Under the pieces are notes generated by a model that was not told the DNA's origin, ran no database searches, and was given only the letters and a program-made list of their open reading frames with translations. From the NCBI RefSeq assembly GCF_058153355.1, contig NZ_CM177019.1: DNA of 64,000 bases; one strand, written 5' to 3'. The position numbers were made by a program, and so were the translations under genes. Every line of letters begins with the position of its first letter. The stretch's first letter is position 1. Positions 1 through 52,007 of this stretch are shown here, piece after piece.

Positions 1-2107
1 AAGCAACAAACGCCGCCAGCATCGACGGTACAAAATGCGTGGTCGTTACGCCATATTCAGCAAAGAATTGCTGCATAGCGAGCGGATCGCGGTGCGCTTC
101 CGGTTCAGCCATCACCAGTTTCGCCCCGGCAATAAACGGCCAGAAAAACTCCCACACCGAGACATCAAAACTGCACGGCGTTTTTTGGGCAACAACATCT
201 TCGCCTGTGAGCGGGTAGTGGTTTTGCATCCATAATAGGCGGTTAACGATAGCCGTCTGCCCGACCATCACCCCTTTCGGCCTGCCGGTGGAACCGGAGG
301 TGAAGATGATATAAGCCGTGTGGTGCGGTTGTGAAAGTTGCAGCGGCGCACTGACCTGCGGTGTAAGCGGGGCGTTATAGCAAAGACTGGTTAAATTGGG
401 GATATCGCTAAAGCGCGGCAGTTGATCATCGGTGGTGATTAACAGTGACGGACGCGCATCTTCCAGCATCATTTTCAGGCGATCGTCTGGATAGCCCGTA
501 TCCAGCGGTAGCCAGGCCGCACCAGCTTCAACTATCGCATGTAGCGCCATAGTCAAAAAGACCGAGCGCGGTAGTGCCACCGCTACGCTGTCGCCAGGTT
601 TAACGCCGCGCTCACGCAGCAGATTCGCCAGCGCCACCACCTGCTCGCGCATTTCCCGATAACTGAACTGGTAACGCACATCTGCCAGTGCCGGAGCATC
701 CGGCGTTTTTGCCGCCTGTTCTGCCACCAGCGCGCTCAGTGTGGTTTCTGGAATCTCAACCTGAGTGGCGTTGATCTGCGCCAGCTGTGCATACTCTTCT
801 GGCAGCAGAATATCGACATCGCCGCACAACCGCGCCGGATCCGCGGCAAACTGCGCCGTCAGCATTTTCAGCCGTTCAGCATGCTTGATTAACGTTGGCT
901 CATCGTAACGCTGTTTATTGGCGAGGATCTCAATACTCAAATCACCGTTTTCATCCGGGAAAAGGGCCAGTTCAAGGTCATTAACCGGACCGGTTGCCAG
1001 GGTATGGGTTTGCGCCTGTACCCCCGGAATATCTAACTGATAATCAAATACTTTAATATTGAGCACCGGACCGAACAGCGGTTCCTCTCCCGCCGCGCGC
1101 CCGCTGTCACGGACAATTTGTTCGGCATCGTAACGTTGATGACGACGCATTTTTTTCAGTTGTGCCGCTAGTCGTGCTGCCAGTTGCGGCAATGTTTCTT
1201 GTGCCTCAATGTGAATACCCAACGGCAACACGTTGAGCACGGGTCCGGTAGCCGTCAGCGCCGCTGAGCCCAGTCGACGCATAAAGATAAATCCGGCGGC
1301 GTAGTCCATGCGGTTGCACAATCGCCCCAGCCACAAAGCCGCCAGCGCAAGGGCTATATCGGTACGTTGTACACCTGAAAGTTGCGTAGCCAACTGGCGG
1401 AATTCCCCGCCGTTAAATTCCAGTTTCAGACGCAAAATATCTGCCGAGGCGCTGCGCCCTGGTAAAGGGGCCGGAGAAAGTGACGCGGGCGGTGGTAGTT
1501 GACGACGCTGTTCCGCCCAGAATGCCGCATCACGCTGCCAGGCTTCGCTTTCGCGGTACTGCTGGTACTCTTCCACGACATCAGCGAAAGGCGTAAACGG
1601 CGAAGCAGGCGTTGGTTCGCCACACCCCCATGCACAGTAAATGTTGGCGATCTGGCGGGTAATGACCGGGAAACTGAAGCCATCGACCAGCAAATGGTGG
1701 TAACGCTGATACCAGTACCAGCGGTTATCTGCCACCTGTATCAGTTGATGAAAAACCAGAGGTTTACCGCTATCGACGCGCAGATCTTGTTGCAAATCCG
1801 CCTGCATTAATGCCTGCGCAGTACCGTGCGGATCAATGTTGGTTCGCAGGTCGATAATTTCTGGCAGTTCGAACGTCAGCGCATCATCGACCCATTGCCA
1901 GACTTCGCCGTTATCTTCCGTAAAACGCATCCGCAGCGTATCTGCTTGCGCTAATCCGGCAACCACCGCGCGAGCCAGTAATGGCGCATCAACATCTCCG
2001 GTTAACTCAACGTAATGCGCCACGCTCCAGGCGGAGGGTAAATCCGACAGTTTTTCTGCCATCCAGATGCCGGGCTGTGCGGCAACTAAAGGTAAATGCT
2101 GGCTCAT
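1..2107 (-). CDS. entF: Enterobactin non-ribosomal peptide synthetase EntF, N-terminal ~700 aa (condensation domain and start of adenylation domain); gene runs off the window edge
   Basis: Minus-strand reading frame open from 2107 to position 1 with no stop; translation begins MSQHLPLVAAQPGIWMAEKL, matching EntF as recalled. ATG overlaps the ybdZ stop (ATGA). Not in the ORF track because it is truncated by the window. Confidence 0.92.
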   Translation of the reverse strand, partial: MSQHLPLVAAQPGIWMAEKLSDLPSAWSVAHYVELTGDVDAPLLARAVVAGLAQADTLRMRFTEDNGEVWQWVDDALTFELPEIIDLRTNIDPHGTAQALMQADLQQDLRVDSGKPLVFHQLIQVADNRWYWYQRYHHLLVDGFSFPVITRQIANIYCAWGCGEPTPASPFTPFADVVEEYQQYRESEAWQRDAAFWAEQRRQLPPPASLSPAPLPGRSASADILRLKLEFNGGEFRQLATQLSGVQRTDIALALAALWLGRLCNRMDYAAGFIFMRRLGSAALTATGPVLNVLPLGIHIEAQETLPQLAARLAAQLKKMRRHQRYDAEQIVRDSGRAAGEEPLFGPVLNIKVFDYQLDIPGVQAQTHTLATGPVNDLELALFPDENGDLSIEILANKQRYDEPTLIKHAERLKMLTAQFAADPARLCGDVDILLPEEYAQLAQINATQVEIPETTLSALVAEQAAKTPDAPALADVRYQFSYREMREQVVALANLLRERGVKPGDSVAVALPRSVFLTMALHAIVEAGAAWLPLDTGYPDDRLKMMLEDARPSLLITTDDQLPRFSDIPNLTSLCYNAPLTPQVSAPLQLSQPHHTAYIIFTSGSTGRPKGVMVGQTAIVNRLLWMQNHYPLTGEDVVAQKTPCSFDVSVWEFFWPFIAGAKLVMAEPEAHRDPLAMQQFFAEYGVTTTHFVPSMLAAFVA

Positions 2108-2322
2108 TGCGCCTCCTGCTGCTGGATGAAATTCGCCGGTGTCAGAGTACGCCAGTGGGCGTCCAGCCACTGCTGGCAGGACGCCTGTGACTGCGGCTGA
2201 CACACAACATCCCAGCCTGCCGGTAAGGCGCACTGTTGCGGCCACAGACTGAATTGCCCCTGCGCATTGCGTAAAATGTAAAACACGCCCTGCGGATCAT
2301 CGAAGGGATTACTGAATGCCAT
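2104..2322 (-). CDS. ybdZ: MbtH-like protein YbdZ (enterobactin synthesis accessory protein), 72 aa
   Basis: ORF track 2104..2328; internal ATG at 2322 gives MAFSNPFDDPQGVFYILRN, the recalled YbdZ N-terminus; position between fes and entF. Confidence 0.9.
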   Translation of the reverse strand: MAFSNPFDDPQGVFYILRNAQGQFSLWPQQCALPAGWDVVCQPQSQASCQQWLDAHWRTLTPANFIQQQEAQ

Positions 2323-2324
2323 AT

Positions 2325-3527
2325 TCAACTCCTGTCATGGAAAAGTGGTTGCCAGAGGTCGATTAGCCCCTGCATCAAGCCACCGCGCCAACAAAGCGCA
2401 TCATGTCCGCCGTCAACCTGACGCCAGAAAATGGATTCTTTTAGGGGGGCTAATTGCGCATACAGCGCCTGATTGGCCCGCATGATCATCGGCTCGCGAA
2501 GACCCGCTTCCAGCACAATGCGCAGACCTTCGGCGCTAACTTCACCAGCTTTGAGCTGTTCAAGTAACACGCCCTCTTGCTGCCCGCCCCGATGCGGCCA
2601 CCAGTACGATCCCGACTGGCTTAATACACAGCCAAAGCGTTCAGGCCAGTGCAGTCCGGCATACAGCGCGGAAAGTCCACCAAAACTCTGCCCTGCGACC
2701 ACGGTGCGATCGGCGTGATCGCTAAAGGGGGCGATAGTTTTCACCTGGGGTAATAACTCTTGCTGTACTGCCAGCCAGAAATCCGCATTACACGGCAGTT
2801 CGTGGGCACGTTGCGTGGTGTCGATAGCGTCGATCAACACGTACACGGCGGGAGGAAGTTGCTGACGATGGGTCAACGAAGTCAGCACAGGCCAGACGGG
2901 CATACTCTGCGCCCAAAATTCGCCATCAAGTAAAACTGCCAGCGGACGTTCTTCTGCTGTTGCATCGCCGGTGGTAAAAATCCATACACGGCGTGAATTT
3001 TTCAACCGTTCACTTTTCCAGATAATTTCTTTGGCAGGCGTTTCTGGCGCTTGCGGACAATCCCATCCTGGTTGCAGGGGCGCTTGCGGCATTTCGAGTG
3101 CAGAAACAGCGTGCCCTCGCCCGCCTTTCCAGCTTTGTGGATTTAGCGGATCGGCTATCGCCTGGGGTAATAGTTTTCGCCAGCCTTCGCGCAATTCGAG
3201 GCGATCAGGTGATGGTGCAGAAAAAATGTCATCACGTTCGGTAGGAATAAAACAGTAGCTGCCGCGCCAGTTGGCATTGAGTTGTGTCGTCCACTGCCAG
3301 ACATCGGTCCCTGCAATTCGCTGCATCGACTGGGGCTGGCTGTTCTGATGGTGATCGGTCACGCCAGTGATATAGACCCATACGCGCTTTATCGTCGAGT
3401 GGTCTTCAGAACCTTGTGGATCACGCCACCAGAAAGTGACCTGATACATTTCGTCATTCAGACGCTGACATTCCGGGCCATGTTTCGACTGCCACCAGCT
3501 CTCACTTCCTACTTTTAACGCCGTCAC
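2325..3527 (-). CDS. fes: Enterochelin (ferric enterobactin) esterase Fes
   Basis: 400-aa ORF starting MTALKVGSESWWQSKHGPE; contains esterase motif GQSFGG; divergent from fepA across a Fur-box region. Exact start not verified. Confidence 0.93.
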   Translation of the reverse strand: MTALKVGSESWWQSKHGPECQRLNDEMYQVTFWWRDPQGSEDHSTIKRVWVYITGVTDHHQNSQPQSMQRIAGTDVWQWTTQLNANWRGSYCFIPTERDDIFSAPSPDRLELREGWRKLLPQAIADPLNPQSWKGGRGHAVSALEMPQAPLQPGWDCPQAPETPAKEIIWKSERLKNSRRVWIFTTGDATAEERPLAVLLDGEFWAQSMPVWPVLTSLTHRQQLPPAVYVLIDAIDTTQRAHELPCNADFWLAVQQELLPQVKTIAPFSDHADRTVVAGQSFGGLSALYAGLHWPERFGCVLSQSGSYWWPHRGGQQEGVLLEQLKAGEVSAEGLRIVLEAGLREPMIMRANQALYAQLAPLKESIFWRQVDGGHDALCWRGGLMQGLIDLWQPLFHDRS

Positions 3528-6042: not shown

Positions 6043-6150
6043 CGTTCATGCCGGATGCGGCGTGAACGCCTTATCCGGCCTACAAAAATCTTGCCAATTC
6101 AATATATTGCAGGATAGTGTAGGCCTGATAAGCGTAGCGCATCAGGCAGT
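6043..6150. repeat. REP (repetitive extragenic palindromic) elements between fepA and entD
   Basis: gccggatgcggcgtgaacgccttatccggcctac and inverted partner gtaggcctgataagcgtagcgcatcaggc are canonical E. coli REP sequences. Confidence 0.65.
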
Positions 6151-6825: not shown

Positions 6826-7290
6826 TCGCCCGCAGCCATCACTGACCACGGGCGAAAGTGTAAAGCAGGTGCCTTACCATCCTGACCTAACAACCGGATA
6901 TGCGGGGATTACTCCCCGCACAACGGCTACTTCTTCGGTTCGTAAGCGAGAACAGCCCTGAACTCAATATTACGTTCCTTTACGGTGAACTCACACAGCG
7001 AGTCGCCGACCAGAAGCGTAAATCCCAGCACTGTCAAACACAGCACTATGACCGCCACAAGGGCATATTTCGTCAGCATGTTTATATTGCCTCCATGCGA
7101 AGAAGGGACTACCATCCAAATTGTCTGGTTTGGAGTGGCGGCCCCAGGGTTGATAGAAATATCTCCTGGGGCTTCATCTTTCCAGACCTCAGAGTAAACC
7201 TGAAACCGGAAAGCTTCAGGCACCCGCCGTTATCTTACCCTTCCTTAGCAAAATGGCTGTTTATTTATACAGTGAGTCCTGTTTCGGACT
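6826..7290. repeat. Tandem repeat unit 1 of a hok/sok-type locus (~465 bp)
   Basis: Near-identical to 7328..7792 at an offset of 502 bp (direct tandem duplication with a few substitutions). Confidence 0.85.
6927..7079 (-). CDS. Hok-family type I toxin (membrane peptide), 50 aa, tandem copy 1
   Basis: C-terminal 50 aa of minus ORF 6927..7223: [50 protein letters not shown]; Hok/Gef family signature. Confidence 0.8.
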
Positions 7291-7327
7291 TCTGTTGGCA
7301 AAACTGATCATTGCCCTTAAAACGACA

Positions 7328-7792
7328 TCGCCCGCAGCCATCACTGACCGCGGGCGAAAGTGTAAAGCAGGTGCCTTACCATCCTGACCTGACAACCGGA
7401 TATGCGGGGATTACTCCCCGCACAACGGCTACTTCTTCGGTTCGTAAGCGAGAACAGCCTTAAACTCAATATTACGTTCCTTTACGGTGAACTCACACAG
7501 CGAGTCGCCGACAAGAAGCGTAAATCCCAGCACCGTCAAACACAGCACTATGACTGCCACAAAGGCATATTTCGTCAGCATGTTTATATTGCCTCCATGC
7601 GAAGAAGGGACTACCATCCAAATTGTTCGGGTTTGGAGTGGCAGCCCCAGGGTTGATAGAAATATCTCCTGGGGCTTCATCTTCCAGACCTCAGAGTAAA
7701 CCTGAAACCGGAAAGCTTCAGGCACCCGCCGTTATCTTACCCTTCCTTAGCAAAATAGCTGTTTATTTATACAGTTGGTCTTATTTCGGACT
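7328..7792. repeat. Tandem repeat unit 2 of a hok/sok-type locus (~465 bp)
   Basis: Direct repeat of 6826..7290. Confidence 0.85.
7429..7581 (-). CDS. hokE: Hok-family type I toxin HokE-like, 50 aa, tandem copy 2 (adjacent to ybdK)
   Basis: [50 protein letters not shown]; position next to ybdK matches the hokE locus of K-12. Confidence 0.8.
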
Positions 7793-19846: not shown

Positions 19847-20530
19847 ATGAAACTGTTGATTGTCGAAGATGAAAAGAAAACCGGAGAATACTTGACCAAA
19901 GGGTTAACCGAAGCCGGTTTTGTGGTCGATTTGGCCGACAACGGGCTGAATGGCTACCATCTGGCGATGACCGGAGATTATGACCTGATAATCCTCGATA
20001 TTATGCTGCCGGACGTGAACGGCTGGGATATCGTGCGCATGTTGCGCTCCGCCAATAAAGGGATGCCGATTCTGTTGCTTACCGCGCTTGGCACCATTGA
20101 ACATCGCGTCAAGGGGCTGGAGTTGGGGGCAGATGACTACCTGGTGAAACCGTTCGCTTTTGCTGAACTGCTGGCGCGGGTGCGGACTCTACTGCGTCGC
20201 GGGGCGGCGGTGATTATCGAAAGTCAGTTTCAGGTTGCCGATTTAATGGTTGATCTGGTCAGCCGCAAAGTCACCCGCAGCGGCACGCGCATCACTTTGA
20301 CCACAAAAGAATTTACCCTGCTGGAATTTTTCCTCCGCCATCAGGGCGAAGTGCTGCCCCGCTCGCTTATCGCCTCGCAGGTGTGGGACATGAATTTCGA
20401 CAGCGACACTAACGCCATTGATGTGGCGGTGAAGCGGCTGCGCGGCAAAATCGACAACGACTTTGAGCCAAAGCTAATTCAGACCGTGCGCGGCGTAGGC
20501 TATATGCTTGAGGTGCCGGATGGCCAGTAA
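19847..20530 (+). CDS. cusR: Copper-responsive two-component response regulator CusR (OmpR family), 227 aa
   Basis: 227-aa [28 protein letters not shown]; receiver plus winged-helix domains. Confidence 0.95.
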
Positions 20531-21968
20531 GCCGTTTCAGCGCCCGTTTTCGCTGGCAACCCGCCTGACCTTTTTTATCAGCCTTGCCACCATTGCAGCG
20601 TTTTTCGTCTTTGCCTGGATCATGATCCACTCGGTAAAAGTGCATTTTGCCGAGCAGGATATTAATGATTTAAAAGAGATTAGCGCCACATTCAGGCGTG
20701 TTCTTAATCATCCCGAAGAGACACAAGCCCGACGCTTAATGACGCTGGAAGATATCGTCAGTGGTTATTCCAACGTGTTGATTTCTCTGACAGATAGCCA
20801 CGGCAAAACGGTGTATCACTCCCCCGGTGCGCCGGATATCCGCGAGTTTGCACGTGATGCCATACCCGATAAAGACGCTCGGAGCGGCGAGGTATATCTC
20901 CTTTCCGGCCCAACAAAGATGATGCCAGGCCACGGTCACGGGCATATGGAACACAGCAACTGGCGGATGATTAGCTTGCCGGTTGGCCCGCAGGTGGATG
21001 GCAAACCGATTTATACGCTCTACATCGCGCTGTCTATCGATTTTCATCTTCATTACATTAATGATTTGATGAATAAACTTATTATGACCGCATCGATCAT
21101 CAGCATCCTGATCGTCTTTATCGTGCTGCTGGCGGTACATAAAGGCCACGCGCCAATTCGCAGCGTCAGCCGTCAAATCCAGAACATTACCTCGAAAGAT
21201 CTCGACGTTCGCCTCGATCCACAGACCGTGCCGATTGAGCTGGAACAACTGGTACTGTCGTTCAACCATATGATCGAGCGTATTGAAGATGTCTTTACCC
21301 GCCAGTCCAATTTCTCAGCGGATATCGCTCACGAAATTCGTACGCCGATTACGAATCTTATAACGCAAACGGAAATTGCCCTCAGCCAGTCGCGCAGCCA
21401 GAAGGAGCTGGAAGATGTGCTCTACTCTAATCTCGAAGAGCTGACGCGAATGGCGAAAATGGTCAGCGATATGCTGTTTCTCGCCCAGGCCGATAACAAC
21501 CAGTTAATCCCCGAAAAGAAAATGCTCAACCTGGCGGATGAAGTCGGCAAAGTGTTCGATTTTTTCGAGGCATTAGCGGAAGATCGTGGCGTGGTGCTGC
21601 GGTTTGTTGGCGACGAATGTCAGGTTGCGGGCGATCCGCTGATGCTGCGTCGGGCGTTAAACAACCTGCTTTCTAATGCCTTGCGTTATACGCCACCCGG
21701 AGAGGCAATTTTAGTGCGCTGCCAGACGGTCGATCACCTGGTGCAAGTTACCGTCGAAAACCCTGGTACGCCCATTGCGCCTGAGCACTTACCGCGATTG
21801 TTTGACCGTTTCTACCGCGTTGATCCTTCCCGCCAGCGAAAAGGTGAAGGTAGCGGCATTGGGCTGGCGATAGTGAAATCAATTGTTGTCGCGCATAAAG
21901 GCACGGTTGCGGTAACGTCAGATGCGCGGGGGACAAGGTTTGTTATCGGGCTACCGGAGAGGGAGTGA
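20520..21968 (+). CDS. cusS: Copper/silver sensor histidine kinase CusS
   Basis: ORF track 20508..21968; ATG at 20520 gives [29 protein letters not shown]-box [11 protein letters not shown]; overlaps cusR end by 11 nt. Confidence 0.93.
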
Positions 21969-22325
21969 TTGGTCAGATAATGCAGTGGATGTTAATTGAA
22001 TTGAGAATTAGCTATTTCGTCACGAGAAAAAGCGTAAAATCCGTTTCGTGCAGATGGTGAGTTTTATCAGGGTATGGCGGTAGCGCAACTGTCTTTGGAT
22101 AATATATGTGATATGAATACATACCCCTAACAACTTCACTAACTAAATACTTAGTTTAGTTATATTAATTTGCATAATACAAACTCATCACCACGATATG
22201 TCATATATTTATAGTCAGCAATCTGGATATATTATTATATAAATGCCATATGGAAATAAAAATTATTATTTAATTCAATATGTAAATTTTACTCTTAACT
22301 ATTTTCGCAGGATAAACCAGCCTCT

Positions 22326-22772
22326 ATGAATATGACTAAAAAAGAAGCATTAGCATTCCTTGCTCTAAATCAACCTATGCCTAATGATTATGACATCACT
22401 CAGGAACTTATCGATAAATATGACGACGTAAGACTTTATTTTTGTGCAAATCCTGCTGAAGAGGCCATACCGTTATTTTTACAATCCTTTGGGGAAGGTG
22501 ATGGCTTAGGAGTATATCAGTTGGTCGAAGATTTTTTGTACAAGTGTGATAAAAACATTGTAGCTTCAAATATAGCCAACATACTGGAAAATCCTCTGAC
22601 AATAAAAAGTGTCCGATATTGGTGTACATTATTAGCAATGGCTTTTCCCGATAACACCTTAATTAAAGGATTAAATATTTCTCTACAATCTGATGATGAA
22701 GATACCCGAGACATGGCTATGTTAAGTTTAAAGATGATTACAGAGGAATATAAAACATTTGAATTCCAATAA
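22326..22772 (+). CDS. Hypothetical acidic 148-aa protein in an AT-rich islet between cusS and nfrB; no family assignable from sequence alone
   Basis: Uninterrupted 148-aa ORF (MNMTKKEALAFLALNQPMPNDYDITQELIDKYDD...) in a ~1.2 kb stretch of about 30-35% GC; helical/acidic composition; no obvious Shine-Dalgarno sequence, so coding status is uncertain. Confidence 0.45.
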   Translation: MNMTKKEALAFLALNQPMPNDYDITQELIDKYDDVRLYFCANPAEEAIPLFLQSFGEGDGLGVYQLVEDFLYKCDKNIVASNIANILENPLTIKSVRYWCTLLAMAFPDNTLIKGLNISLQSDDEDTRDMAMLSLKMITEEYKTFEFQ

Positions 22773-23213
22773 TTCCCCCTTGCATAAAAGATCACCATCA
22801 TGACAAAAACACAAGCAAAGTTGCTTATTTATAAAGCATTTGTTATTTTAACGTTCATTATTTCCCGGTTGAATATTAAACTTAATTAATCTAAAGAGAA
22901 ATGAAGTTAGCCTTCCTGTACCCACAGCAACGCCGTCTTTTTGTTCAGCACGGGGAAAATGTTCTCCCCTGCTCACCTCCTCCAGGCACTTCCACAACAT
23001 GATGACCTGATCGGTTGCCGCCTATCCTCCTCACTAAGACCTTCACCTCCGCGCTTTTGCCTACATCCTGCACAATCGGCAACTTTTATAACCAGTGTAA
23101 AAATAACGTGCCGCAATAATCCTACCTATTAATGATAAAAAGCTGTCACAATTCATAAAAAACTTTAATATACGCCACCCTAAACATAACCAGCGTTAAT
23201 GTAAGGTTTTTGT

Positions 23214-37355: not shown

Positions 37356-38222
37356 ATGGCAGCAAAGATTATTGACGGTAAAACGATTGCGCAGCAGGTG
37401 CGCTCTGAAGTTGCTCAAAAAGTTCAGGCACGTATTGCAGCTGGACTGCGGGCACCAGGACTGGCCGTAGTACTGGTGGGTAGCAACCCTGCATCGCAAA
37501 TTTATGTCGCAAGCAAACGCAAAGCTTGTGAAGAAGTCGGGTTCGTCTCCCGTTCTTATGACCTCCCGGAAACCACCAGCGAAGCGGAGCTGCTGGAGCT
37601 TATCGATGCGCTGAATGCCGACAACACCATTGATGGCATTCTGGTCCAACTGCCGTTACCGGCGGGTATTGATAACGTCAAAGTGCTGGAACGAATTCAC
37701 CCGGACAAAGACGTTGACGGTTTCCATCCTTATAACGTCGGTCGTCTATGCCAGCGCGCGCCGCGTCTACGTCCTTGCACCCCGCGTGGGATCGTCACAC
37801 TGCTTGAGCGATACAACATTGATACCTTCGGTCTTAACGCCGTGGTGATTGGCGCATCGAATATCGTCGGTCGCCCAATGAGCATGGAACTGTTGCTCGC
37901 AGGTTGCACCACCACCGTGACTCACCGCTTCACTAAAAATCTGCGTCATCACGTAGAAAATGCCGATCTATTGATCGTTGCCGTCGGTAAGCCAGGCTTT
38001 ATTCCCGGTGACTGGATCAAAGAAGGCGCAATTGTGATTGATGTCGGCATCAACCGTCTGGAAAATGGCAAAGTTGTGGGCGACGTCGTGTTTGAAGACG
38101 CGGCTAAACGCGCCTCATACATTACGCCTGTTCCGGGCGGCGTTGGCCCGATGACGGTTGCCACGCTGATTGAAAACACGCTACAGGCGTGCGTTGAGTA
38201 TCATGATCCACAGGGTGAGTAA
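37356..38222 (+). CDS. folD: Bifunctional methylenetetrahydrofolate dehydrogenase/cyclohydrolase FolD, 288 aa
   Basis: 288-aa [26 protein letters not shown]; highly conserved. Confidence 0.96.
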
Positions 38223-38223
38223 C

Positions 38224-38436
38224 ATGGCGACATTTTCTTTAGGTAAACATCCGCACGTTGAGCTGTGCGACTTGCTGAAACTGGAAGGCTGGAGCGAAAG
38301 CGGCGCGCAGGCGAAAATCGCGATTGCCGAAGGCCAGGTGAAAGTCGACGGCGCGGTTGAAACGCGCAAACGCTGCAAAATCGTCGCCGGTCAGACAGTG
38401 AGTTTTGCAGGTCACAGCGTACAGGTTGTTGCCTGA
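38224..38436 (+). CDS. ybcJ: S4-domain RNA-binding protein YbcJ, 70 aa
   Basis: ATG at 38224 gives MATFSLGKHPHVELCDLLKLEGW; immediately after folD. Confidence 0.85.
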   Translation: MATFSLGKHPHVELCDLLKLEGWSESGAQAKIAIAEGQVKVDGAVETRKRCKIVAGQTVSFAGHSVQVVA

Positions 38437-40659: not shown

Positions 40660-41154
40660 ATGGTTACTTTCCACACCAATCACGGCGATATTGTCATCAA
40701 AACTTTTGACGATAAAGCACCTGAAACAGTTAAAAACTTCCTGGACTACTGCCGCGAAGGTTTTTACAACAACACCATTTTCCACCGTGTTATCAACGGC
40801 TTTATGATTCAGGGCGGCGGTTTTGAGCCAGGCATGAAGCAAAAAGCCACCAAAGAACCGATCAAAAACGAAGCCAACAACGGTCTGAAAAATACCCGTG
40901 GTACGCTGGCAATGGCCCGTACTCAGGCACCGCACTCTGCAACTGCACAGTTCTTCATCAACGTGGTTGATAACGACTTCCTGAACTTCTCTGGCGAAAG
41001 CCTGCAAGGTTGGGGTTACTGCGTGTTTGCTGAAGTGGTTGAAGGCATGGACGTGGTTGACAAAATCAAAGGTGTAGCAACCGGTCGTAGCGGTATGCAC
41101 CAGGACGTGCCAAAAGAAGACGTTATCATTGAAAGCGTGACCGTTAGCGAGTAA
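40660..41154 (+). CDS. ppiB: Peptidyl-prolyl cis-trans isomerase B (cyclophilin) PpiB, 164 aa
   Basis: 164-aa [30 protein letters not shown]; cyclophilin fold. Confidence 0.96.
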
Positions 41155-41156
41155 TC

Positions 41157-41879
41157 GTGGCGACACTCTTTATTGCAGATCTTCATCTCTGCGCGGAAGA
41201 ACCGGCGATCACCGCCGGTTTTCTGCGTTTTTTAGCGGGGGAAGCCCGCAAGGCCGACGCGCTGTATATTCTTGGCGATCTGTTTGAAGCATGGATTGGC
41301 GATGACGATCCCAACCCACTCCATCGCCAGATGGCCGCAGCGATCAAAGCGGTGTCCGATTCCGGTGTTCCCTGTTATTTCATTCATGGCAACCGTGATT
41401 TTCTGCTCGGCAAACGCTTTGCCCGTGAAAGTGGCATGACGTTATTGCCGGAAGAAAAGGTGCTCGAACTTTATGGTCGCCGGGTGTTGATTATGCATGG
41501 CGACACGCTGTGCACCGATGACGCGGGTTATCAGGCTTTTCGCGCCAAAGTCCACAAACCCTGGCTGCAAACGCTATTCCTCGCCCTGCCGTTGTTTGTG
41601 CGTAAACGCATTGCCGCGCGAATGCGCGCGAACAGCAAAGAAGCCAACAGCAGTAAATCGCTGGCGATCATGGACGTTAACCAAAACGCGGTGGTCAGTG
41701 CGATGGAAAAACATCAGGTGCAATGGCTGATCCACGGGCATACCCATCGCCCGGCGATCCATGAACTTATCGCCAATCAGCAACCTGCTTTCCGCGTCGT
41801 GCTGGGAGCCTGGCATACGGAAGGTTCAATGGTGAAAGTCACGGCGGATGACGTTGAGCTGATTCATTTTCCGTTTTAA
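41157..41879 (+). CDS. lpxH: UDP-2,3-diacylglucosamine hydrolase LpxH, 240 aa
   Basis: 240-aa [14 protein letters not shown] with calcineurin-like phosphoesterase motifs; 2-nt gap after ppiB. Confidence 0.94.
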
Positions 41880-41995: not shown

Positions 41996-42505
41996 ATGTC
42001 TTCCCGCAATAATCCGGCGCGTGTCGCCATCGTGATGGGGTCCAAAAGCGACTGGGCTACCATGCAGTTCGCCGCCGAAATCTTCGAAATCCTGAATGTC
42101 CCGCACCACGTTGAAGTGGTTTCTGCTCACCGCACCCCCGATAAACTGTTCAGCTTCGCCGAAAGTGCCGAAGAGAACGGTTATCAGGTGATTATTGCTG
42201 GCGCAGGCGGCGCAGCGCACCTGCCGGGCATGATTGCCGCCAAAACGCTGGTGCCAGTGCTGGGTGTGCCAGTACAGAGCGCCGCACTGAGCGGTGTCGA
42301 TAGCCTCTACTCCATCGTACAAATGCCGCGCGGCATTCCGGTGGGTACGCTGGCGATTGGTAAAGCTGGCGCGGCAAACGCGGCGTTACTGGCAGCACAA
42401 ATTCTTGCAACTCATGATAAAGAACTGCACCAGCGTTTGAATGACTGGCGCAAAGCCCAGACTGATGAAGTGCTGGAAAACCCGGACCCGCGAGGTGCGG
42501 CATGA
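41996..42505 (+). CDS. purE: N5-carboxyaminoimidazole ribonucleotide mutase PurE, 169 aa
   Basis: ORF track 41969..42505; ATG at 41996 gives [20 protein letters not shown]. Confidence 0.96.
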
Positions 42506-43584: not shown

Positions 43585-43790
43585 CCTGCCGGATGCGGCG
43601 TGAACGCCTTATCCGGCCTACTAATCCGGTACCCATTGTAGGCCTGATAAGAGGCGTCAAGCGTCGCATCAGGCATGGTGCGCCGATTACCGGATGCGGC
43701 GTGAACGCCTTATCCGACTACCAATCCGGTACCCATTGTAGGCCTGATAAGAGGCGTCAAGCGTCGCATCAGGCATGGTGCGCCATATGC
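43585..43790. repeat. BIME/REP cluster: two ~100-bp direct repeats each containing inverted REP elements
   Basis: ccggatgcggcgtgaacgccttatccg...gtaggcctgataagaggcgtcaagcgtcgcatcaggcatggtgcgcc occurs twice in tandem between convergent purK and ybcF. Confidence 0.75.
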
Positions 43791-43802: not shown

Positions 43803-44699
43803 TCACGACAGCGAAATACAGGTCCCCGCTTCGCCCGCCAGCGTCTCTTCAATCCGCGATAACGCCCCAATCCACGCAGGTTTACCACGGCTTCTGACAT
43901 AGCCACTCACCGCCGTTACCTTCGGTCCCATCGCCCCATCGGCTTTGGCAAATGGCGCTAACTCATCCGGTGTGGCATGGGGAATGGCGCGTTGCTGCGG
44001 CGTTCCCCAGTTTTCATAAACCGCATCAGCATCGGTGAGGATCACCAGTCCATCGGCATTAATCTGCTCGGCAAGCAACGCCGCGGCGAGATCTTTATCA
44101 ATCACCGCTTCACTCCCTGCTCCGTCATCCGTCACCGGAACACCGCCGCCGCCACTGCAAATCACCACATGCCCCTCTTTGAGCAACAACTCGATGGCTT
44201 CGCTGTCGAGAATTTTACGAGGCTGGGGAGATGCCACCACCCGGCGTAAATATTTGCCATCACGCTTCATTTGCCAGCCGTAAGTCGTTTCCAGTGCCTC
44301 TTGTTCTTCTGGCTGATAAACCGGGCCGATAAACTTCTCTGGCTGCAAAAACGCCGGATCATCAGGCGAAACTTCAATGCGCGTCAGCATCGTCGTGACA
44401 GGCGGCATCTGCGGCTGTGCGCTCAAGCTCTGCGCCAGCATATAGCCAATCATCCCCTGGCTTTCCGCCACCAGCACATCCAGCGGATACGGTTCTACCT
44501 CTTTCCACGCCAGATTCTGTAACGCCAGCAGCCCCACCTGTGGCCCGTTGCCGTGAACAATCGCCAGCCGATAAGAACGGGCCAGGCGCGCCAGTGCGGG
44601 TACAGCACTGGCAATGTTGCGATATTGATTTTCTGCCGTCAGCGCTTCGCCGCGCTGGAGTAAGGCGTTGCCCCCAAGAGCCACAACCAGTGTTTTCAT
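43803..44699 (-). CDS. ybcF: Carbamate kinase-like protein YbcF (ArcC family)
   Basis: 298-aa [21 protein letters not shown], amino-acid kinase family; synteny with ylbF-ylbE-fdrA. Confidence 0.88.
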
Positions 44700-45511
44700 G
44701 GTGTTCCTTGTAATAATTGTTGACCAAGCCAGAACCCCAGCAGCGTATCTGCCCCTGACGTATGCCCCAGCGCCAGCAGCGAATCAATCGCAACAGCGGT
44801 ACGTTTCGGGCAACTCAGAGCATGAACAAAGTGCAGGAGTGGCGAGGCGAAATATCCTTGCGCGGCGTAACGTAAATAATTAACGCTCACCGCCGTGGTA
44901 ACGAGTTGAAGATTGTCGGAACAGGCAAAAAACGGGCGACCGGAGCGCGCATCTAAAGCGCCAAAATACCAGGCCGCCAGCAGCATTCCGCTCAGCGTGT
45001 CATCATGACTCGGCGTTAATCCCGGCCCTTTACCCAGCCAGTGCCGCCAGTCGGTCTTAACGCCATTGAGCGCGGCCTGAAAACAGTGACGAAACTGGCG
45101 TAATTCAGCGGGAAGCGGATCGCCTGCCGCCAACGCCAGCGGCCCGAAAAGCCCGGTTTCCTCCGCGCGTTGCATCCATGCCGCTGCAAGCGGTTGAGGA
45201 TGCGCAGGCGGCGTAATACGCAGCAAACAATAACGCTGTGGCTGTTTAACCGTGAAACGCCCGAGGCGAATCCCTTGAGCCATAACCTGCGGTCGTTCAT
45301 TGCCGCATAATCCACCGCATAACGCATCGAATTGTGCGCGGCGAAGCACCCATCCTCCGGGACCGAAACCACTTCCCTGACGATGTAGCGTTAACAGTTC
45401 GCCGCTTTCTGTCAGCAGATTAATCGCCCGCCGCCAGATGCCCGCTAACCGCCAGGACTGGCGATAGTCAGGTGCACTACGACTGGCAAGCAGAGGATGG
45501 ATGATCGTCAT
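44696..45511 (-). CDS. ylbF: Uncharacterized protein YlbF (DUF2877), 271 aa
   Basis: ORF track 44696..45604; internal ATG at 45511 ([16 protein letters not shown]) gives 271 aa; 4-nt overlap with ybcF. Confidence 0.82.
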
Positions 45512-51877: not shown

Positions 51878-52007
51878 GTCATACCACTCGCCTGATTATT
51901 TTTAGCTATGTTGGATTTTGCCACGGTTTATACCGTGGCTTTTTTTTTGTAGTCAATTCAGGTAAAAAAAGATGCGATATAAATCGCATCCGCTTTAAAG
52001 GTAAGAG

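Follow-up and report, generated by a model that had tools for sequence, protein, structure and literature searches.

The window analysed here, 64,000 nucleotides of contig NZ_CM177019.1, is a segment of the Escherichia coli chromosome that extends from entF to allS. It is reversed in orientation with respect to K-12 MG1655, where it corresponds to positions of roughly 531–618 kb. The first 6 kb of the window matched 5,415 of 5,426 complete E. coli genomes with a top identity of 99.2%, and the top match of an internal 25-kb query was 98.4%. Strain N96 is the most similar complete strain, with gene-by-gene identities to the window of 95%–99.8%. The window lacks the DLP12 prophage, ompT, appY and IS186 but otherwise has the gene order of K-12.

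Six pairs of adjacent genes in this segment overlap or abut. Each junction was read from the window sequence, and all gene models were checked for start codon, stop codon and reading frame. This analysis confirmed the gene identities and the coordinates of all six junctions named in the original prediction (Table 1). The same junctions are annotated alike in the RefSeq entries of strains 24A16CRGN010 and N96 and in K-12 MG1655. Between K-12 and the window the junction sequences differ by 0–5 bases, none of which lies in a start codon, a stop codon or a Shine-Dalgarno (SD) motif. For K-12, the 14-nt overlap of nfrB and nfrA is already in print (PMC8669469, Fig. 1B). The six junctions are part of the reference annotation and show no departure from the known pattern.

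An SD-like motif was found 4–12 nt before all six downstream starts, in each case within the upstream gene. The energies of the duplexes with the anti-SD sequence ranged from -5.4 to -10.3 kcal/mol. The strongest of the six (-10.3 kcal/mol) belongs to entF and is kept in K-12; on the minus strand the ybdZ/entF junction reads ...CAGGAGGCGCAATGAGCC. The start codon of cusS is built from a cusR Asp codon, GAT, and the G that follows. At the nfrA/ybcH junction the two abutting genes share one reading frame, and the GGAG listed in Table 1 could serve as the SD of ybcH.

Table 1. Junctions, SD-like motifs and next in-frame start codons of the genes under study (window coordinates; for alternative starts, the distance from the annotated start)
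Feature	Position	Strand	Description
ybdZ/entF, ATGA	2104..2107	-	ybdZ TGA 2106..2104, entF ATG 2107..2105
entF SD, AGGAGG	2112..2117	-	inside the ybdZ CDS, 4 nt before the ATG
fes/ybdZ, spacing +2	2320..2327	-	fes TGA, 2 nt, ybdZ ATG
cusS SD-like, GAGGTG	20510..20515	+	inside cusR
cusR/cusS, 11-nt overlap	20520..20530	+	cusS ATG at 20520, cusR TAA ends at 20530
nfrA SD-like, GGAG	25427..25430	+	inside nfrB
nfrB/nfrA, 14-nt overlap	25438..25451	+	nfrA ATG at 25438, nfrB TAA ends at 25451
GGAG	28396..28399	+	inside conserved NfrA C-terminal codons (...GVHW*)
nfrA/ybcH, TAAATG, spacing 0	28408..28413	+	nfrA TAA ends at 28410, ybcH ATG starts at 28411
folD/ybcJ, spacing +1	38220..38226	+	folD TAA, 1 nt, ybcJ ATG
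ppiB/lpxH, spacing +2	41152..41159	+	ppiB TAA, 2 nt, lpxH GTG
purK SD-like, GAGGTG	42492..42497	+	inside purE
purE/purK, ATGA	42502..42505	+	purE stop overlaps purK start
ylbF (allH)/ybcF (allK), ATGA	44696..44699	-	ylbF stop overlaps ybcF start
ybcF SD-like, AAGGA	44705..44709	-	inside ylbF
cusS next in-frame start	+34 codons		would delete first transmembrane helix
nfrA next in-frame start	+20 codons		would delete signal peptide
ybcH next in-frame start	+7 codons and beyond		would delete signal peptide
purK next in-frame start	+14 codons		would delete GxGxxG strand-loop
entF next in-frame start	+15 codons		would delete PLVAAQPGIW, first condensation-domain motif
ybcF next in-frame start	+5 codons		would delete carbamate kinase VVALGGNA motif

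The overlaps had been described as pervasive, a term that the gene spacing of the window does not bear out. Among the 41 adjacent gene pairs on the same strand five overlap (12%), compared with ~15% reported for most prokaryote groups and for E. coli (PMC6728339; PMC5318159). Four further pairs are spaced at 0 to +3, and 11 of the 41 pairs (27%) fall within the range of -8 to +10. An enrichment of overlaps in the window was rejected: the binomial test at an overlap rate of 15% gave P(X>=5) = 0.76, and the test for the -8 to +10 class gave P(X>=11) = 0.79, the rate being set to 820 of about 2,600 pairs, where the latter figure is our own rough total. The number of 820 E. coli pairs at -8 to +10 is a published one and stands against 1,630 pairs spaced at more than +20 (PMC10666635). 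In its frequency of overlaps the window equals the genome average or lies slightly under it. A spacing of exactly -4 was observed for three pairs and the neighbouring values for none; these three pairs reflect the known genome-wide spike at -4 and are not peculiar to the region.

Three equally tight junctions of the window were absent from the original prediction, namely fes/ybdZ, folD/ybcJ and ppiB/lpxH. At the purK loci of related bacteria the spacing of ppiB/lpxH varied from -8 to +18, and that of folD/ybcJ was mostly -1 or +1.

In all six pairs the genes lie on the same strand with no space for a terminator or a promoter between them. Co-transcription of fdrA-ylbE-ylbF-ybcF (allFGHK) was demonstrated by RT-PCR in published work, and nfrBA-ybcH has been regarded as a single operon (PMC8669469); for ybdZ/entF, cusRS and purEK the single transcript was taken from the annotation. 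The proposed translational coupling can be judged against reporter assays that found coupling in four of five native ATGA pairs of E. coli (PMC6728339). The remaining ATGA pair, bioBF, was uncoupled in the assay construct and initiated independently (PMC6728339). Coupling is efficient at spacings of -4 to +3 and falls as overlaps grow beyond 4 nt towards -25. A spacer of ~20 nt nearly abolishes reinitiation (PMC10666635). Spacings of -4 are in strong excess genome-wide, and those of -8 to +10 have been treated as predictive of coupling (PMC10666635). Three of the six pairs, ybdZ/entF, purE/purK and ylbF/ybcF (-4 each), and nfrA/ybcH (0) lie inside the range of -4 to +3. For these four junctions coupling is a reasonable inference from the sequence. 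In contrast, cusR/cusS (-11) and nfrB/nfrA (-14) lie outside both ranges, and here the case for coupling is weaker because its efficiency drops beyond an overlap of 4 nt.

The predicted energy needed to open the mRNA at positions -15 to +5 around the start lent weak support to coupling, with a median of 9.5 kcal/mol for tightly spaced downstream genes versus 6.2 kcal/mol for the others (n = 9 versus 41), a marginal difference (one-sided p = 0.048). The starts of nfrA (5.2 kcal/mol) and ybcF (4.7 kcal/mol) are predicted to be accessible enough for independent initiation. A published coupling test by premature stop codons was not found in the literature for any of the six pairs.

Taken together, we consider the six junctions to be ordinary junctions within the operons fes-ybdZ-entF, cusRS, nfrBA-ybcH, purEK and allFGHK at which translation of the two genes is probably linked (probability of about 0.85). 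At each of them the start codon of the second gene, with its SD, lies inside the 3' end of the first gene or immediately adjoins it. [quoted passage not shown] The junctions spaced at -4 and 0 are the likeliest sites of such re-initiation or opening, which would be less efficient at cusRS and nfrBA. Coupling of this kind would link the two expression levels without equalising them; the ratio would be set by the efficiency of reinitiation together with independent initiation.

Known gene pairs share features with those of the window. With the coupled ATGA pairs trpB-trpA, hyfHI, astDB and menDH the pairs of the window share co-directional genes within an operon and an SD inside the upstream gene. 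Three window pairs overlap by the 4 nt of this class, the commonest bacterial spacing class, and one abuts, whereas cusRS and nfrBA, unlike the class, lie where coupling efficiency falls. Counterparts of cusRS are ompR-envZ and other two-component operons in which regulator and kinase genes overlap; in ompR-envZ the regulator gene also comes first and the start of the kinase gene lies within the 3' end of the regulator gene, although the overlap there is 4 nt as opposed to 11 nt in cusRS. Translation of envZ was reported to depend on translation of ompR as far as its normal stop. At the same time OmpR is present at ~3,500 molecules per cell, far above what would suit a 1:1 partner.

The overlaps had been put forward for a check of their conservation in relatives. 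The genes stay tightly spaced from genus to genus, and the precise length of the overlap drifts. For some relatives the gene calls were automatic, and the junction sequences were inspected by eye. For purE/purK, a PurK scan with one genome per species gave 80 loci, which belong to the Enterobacterales, Orbales and Pasteurellales, and 77 scorable species. ATGA (-4) was present in 60 of these 77 species, TAATG (-1) in five, a spacing of +1 in three and of +10 to +23 in another three. In the Pasteurellaceae the gap between the two genes measured +69 to +249 nt and contained hairpins of inverted sequences resembling uptake signals. Most of the sampled Enterobacterales carry a motif of the GAGG/GGGAGG type at the position of the purK SD.

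The nfrB-nfrA-ybcH operon is kept at five loci from Citrobacter to Rhodanobacter. These operons were reached via YbcH homologues, as a search with the NfrA N-terminus gave mostly fragments. The nfrB/nfrA spacing at the five loci was -14, -4, -4, +1 and -4, and values of -1 and -4 were found in Plesiomonas and a metagenome contig. For nfrA/ybcH the relatives' loci gave -1, 0, -1, -1 and -4, and the NfrA and YbcH N-termini of the relatives were all signal peptides. Among cus-type regulator/kinase pairs the spacing was -11 in a homologue on a Salmonella plasmid, -8 in silRS, -8 in Acinetobacter and -4 in Ralstonia. In four of five cus-type pairs, cusRS included, the kinase ATG is formed from the C-terminal Asp codon GAT of the regulator plus a G. 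A match to pcoS had no adjacent pcoR in the gene table of its plasmid, which is itself incomplete. The ybdZ/entF spacing was -4 in three of four relatives, namely Yokenella and two more (YbdZ identity 68–70%), and +9 in Izhakiella. The ylbF/ybcF pair is joined by ATGA in those E. coli sequences that were inspected, is spaced by +3 (GGATAAACCATG) in four genera other than Escherichia and by +187 in a Serratia; in all of these genera the ybcF start lies at the same residue. The E. coli ATGA looks like a recent loss of an older stop codon, since the spacing is +3 in other genera and the ybcF start is unchanged. The wide purE/purK gap of the Pasteurellaceae and the +3 spacing of ylbF/ybcF in other genera show that the exact overlap is not required. 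Across these relatives the start codons are conserved, as is the close spacing of the genes, but the exact overlap is not.

Such drift raises the question of whether the exact overlaps arose neutrally, when a mutation removed or shifted a stop codon, or a small indel altered the 3' end of the upstream gene, and this gene happened to run into the next start, with no selected function beyond the packing of genes in an operon. A change of a single nucleotide that removed the ancestral stop would explain the step from +3 to ATGA at ylbF/ybcF. Likewise, nfrA/ybcH of E. coli reads TGGTAAATG (0) where relatives have TGGTAATG (-1), the spacing of nfrB/nfrA drifts from -14 to +1 and that of ppiB/lpxH over the range given above, and the overlap frequency of the window does not exceed the background. 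However, nfrBA-ybcH, the cus-type pairs and purEK of the Enterobacterales stay within a narrow band of -14 to +3 over large evolutionary distances, the -4 class is far more common genome-wide than its neighbours, and most of the ATGA pairs that were tested proved to be coupled. As an account of the junctions as a whole we therefore regard neutral origin as possible but rather unlikely. It is compatible with linked translation within operons as far as the exact length is concerned, and not as far as tightness is concerned.

The longer overlaps (-8, -11 and -14) all lie in one reading phase. These overlaps might have been selected for inefficient reinitiation, which would fix a low ratio of kinase to regulator or of outer-membrane protein to synthase; overlap length would then set the ratio of the two proteins instead of equalising them. 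This idea draws on the persistence of the overlaps at varying lengths and on the ~8-fold excess of CusR over CusS; we consider it quite unlikely. The excess was calculated from an absolute proteome of K-12 covering seven conditions, in which the mass fraction was ~1.6–2.4e-4 for CusR and 4.4–5.5e-5 for CusS (Mori et al. 2021). With masses of 25.4 and 54.1 kDa these values correspond to a CusR:CusS molar ratio of 7.6–9.2, a figure that derives from general proteome data and not from a dedicated study. Among the rows listed from the tables of Mori et al. (2021) were cusR, cusS and entF, while purE, purK and ybdZ were not found, and the comparison of abundances was limited to the cusR/cusS pair.

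The original prediction had gone one step further and read the overlaps as a sign of stoichiometric co-expression within each pair. CusR and CusS are signalling partners whose contact is transient. That the overlaps would enforce equal synthesis of both proteins of a pair is hard to reconcile with their molar ratio of ~8–9:1 in K-12, and we hold it to be very unlikely. Genome-wide data speak against it as well: the relative translation efficiencies of 73 overlapping E. coli ORF pairs vary essentially as much as those of 253 non-overlapping pairs (PMC5318159). Subunits of heteromeric complexes are 4.5-fold enriched among closely spaced E. coli pairs, which would favour equal synthesis, but complex subunits make up 30.4% of these pairs and the other 69.6% are not complexes (PMC10666635).

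Among the six pairs, equal synthesis is favoured by YbdZ, an MbtH-family protein (PF03621), which binds the adenylation domain of EntF and forms a 1:1 complex with EntF in the crystal structure (PDB 5JA1). This is the only documented 1:1 complex among the six pairs. Close co-production of YbdZ and EntF is plausible because some NRPS proteins carry a fused MbtH-like domain. However, proteins of this family are also able to serve clusters other than their own, and strict 1:1 co-synthesis is therefore not required; the ybdZ/entF ATGA is not universal among close relatives either, as the Izhakiella junction demonstrates. NfrB, NfrA and YbcH were proposed to be parts of one trans-envelope secretion machine, but YbcH is dispensable for infection by phage N4, and the motility phenotype requires it only in part (PMC8669469). 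YlbF (AllH) is one of the subunits of oxamate transcarbamylase, and YbcF (AllK) is a separate carbamate kinase, the next enzyme. PurE and PurK are separate enzymes too; they are joined only in a docking model, a preprint that proposes PurK:PurE of 4:8. Data on relative abundance were not found in the literature for the five pairs other than cusR/cusS. None of the gene names searched for occurs in the supplementary data of Burkhardt et al. (2017) or of a ribosome-profiling paper on E. coli, and a full-text search for papers that mention ribosome profiling along with several of the genes yielded none.

For each downstream gene all in-frame ATG, GTG and TTG codons were listed, beginning at the preceding stop and extending 45 codons past the start. 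In every case the annotated start had the best or the only SD-like motif among the candidates. Homologues share the same first residue as the downstream proteins of the window. The sequence of the E. coli PurK crystal structure matches residues 1–354, the EntF and YbdZ chains of PDB 5JA1 begin at residue 1 after a two-residue tag, and the alignment of distant carbamate kinases to YbcF begins at residues 2–4. The original prediction would have lost its overlaps if downstream starts were the conserved ones in homologues. We looked for such starts and did not find them, because the downstream candidates would delete essential N-termini and because homologues and structures begin at the same residue. 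Alternative downstream start codons were rejected for the loss of N-terminal elements. The notion that some overlaps are annotation artefacts, with true starts lying further 3', is scarcely credible: start codon prediction is generally error-prone and upstream TTG codons are also present in the cusS and nfrA ORFs, but use of the next in-frame starts at +5 to +34 codons would in each case sacrifice a catalytic motif, a signal peptide or a transmembrane helix, the alignments of homologues begin at residue 1, and the PurK, EntF and YbdZ structures as well as the YbcF alignments agree with the annotated starts. The start codons of the six downstream genes, as originally chosen, are correct.

The value of the six junctions lies mainly in quality control. 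Start codons and operon structure of the region are sound, and it resembles the rest of the E. coli genome. They also call for caution in reading gene overlaps: an overlap of start and stop codons suggests linked translation and not equal protein output, as cusRS with its ratio of ~8:1 and the genome-wide data illustrate.

Within 6927-7727 the window contains two hokE/sok toxin-antitoxin loci in tandem, whereas E. coli K-12 MG1655 has one hokE followed by IS186 at this position. An islet of 1.25 kb with a low GC content (28-36%) lies between cusS and nfrB (21969-23213), where the gap in K-12 amounts to 149 nt. No Pfam match was obtained for the 148-aa open reading frame of this islet. Its coverage never exceeded 71% in any complete E. 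coli genome, and its first ~357 nt lie outside the best matches among these genomes. The product of the preceding gene cusS (20520-21968) comprises 482 aa in the window and in the most similar complete strain N96, whereas both K-12 and strain 24A16CRGN010 encode a version of 480 aa.

Between argU and envY K-12 possesses the prophage DLP12 together with ompT and appY, all of which are absent from the window (30245-30610). The adjacent fimZ (30610-31241) has lost 1 nt relative to strain N96. This gene is probably a pseudogene, since the deletion breaks it into two open reading frames. The coordinates of the individual features are compiled in the table.

Features of the window outside the main gene pairs
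Feature	Position	Remark
ES036	6085-6126	between fepA and entD; Rfam match
hokE, first copy	6927-7079	
sok, first copy	7071-7225	
hokE, second copy	7429-7581	
sok, second copy	7573-7727	
islet ORF, 148 aa	22326-22772	between cusS and nfrB
tRNA-Arg(TCT)	30291-30367	directly after envY
fimZ ORF fragments	30547-31014 and 31053-31241	split caused by 1-nt deletion
naRNA4, REP-derived	43641-43719	between purK and ybcF; Rfam match
sRNA STnc480	51884-51950	3' of allE; Rfam match

Megablast matched many extra places per genome, probably because the window carries the REP element naRNA4.

The purE-purK spacers of Pasteurellaceae (loci L077 and L080-L084 of the PurK scan) measure 69-249 nt and harbour ACCGCACTT/AAGTGCGGT-type inverted repeats with T runs downstream of them. 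These repeats look like uptake-signal-sequence hairpins or terminators. In the same scan the neighbourhood of purK, up to a distance of 10 kb, yielded no homologue of ylbF or ybcF for E. coli SCPM-O-B-8794 (L006) or E. albertii (L007). Thus, the allFGHK cluster (fdrA-ylbE-ylbF-ybcF) seems to be missing or relocated in some Escherichia.

At the nfrA/ybcH junction (28408-28413) the TAA of nfrA and the ATG of ybcH share one reading frame. Consequently, ribosomes reading through the nfrA stop codon would yield a hypothetical NfrA-YbcH fusion product.
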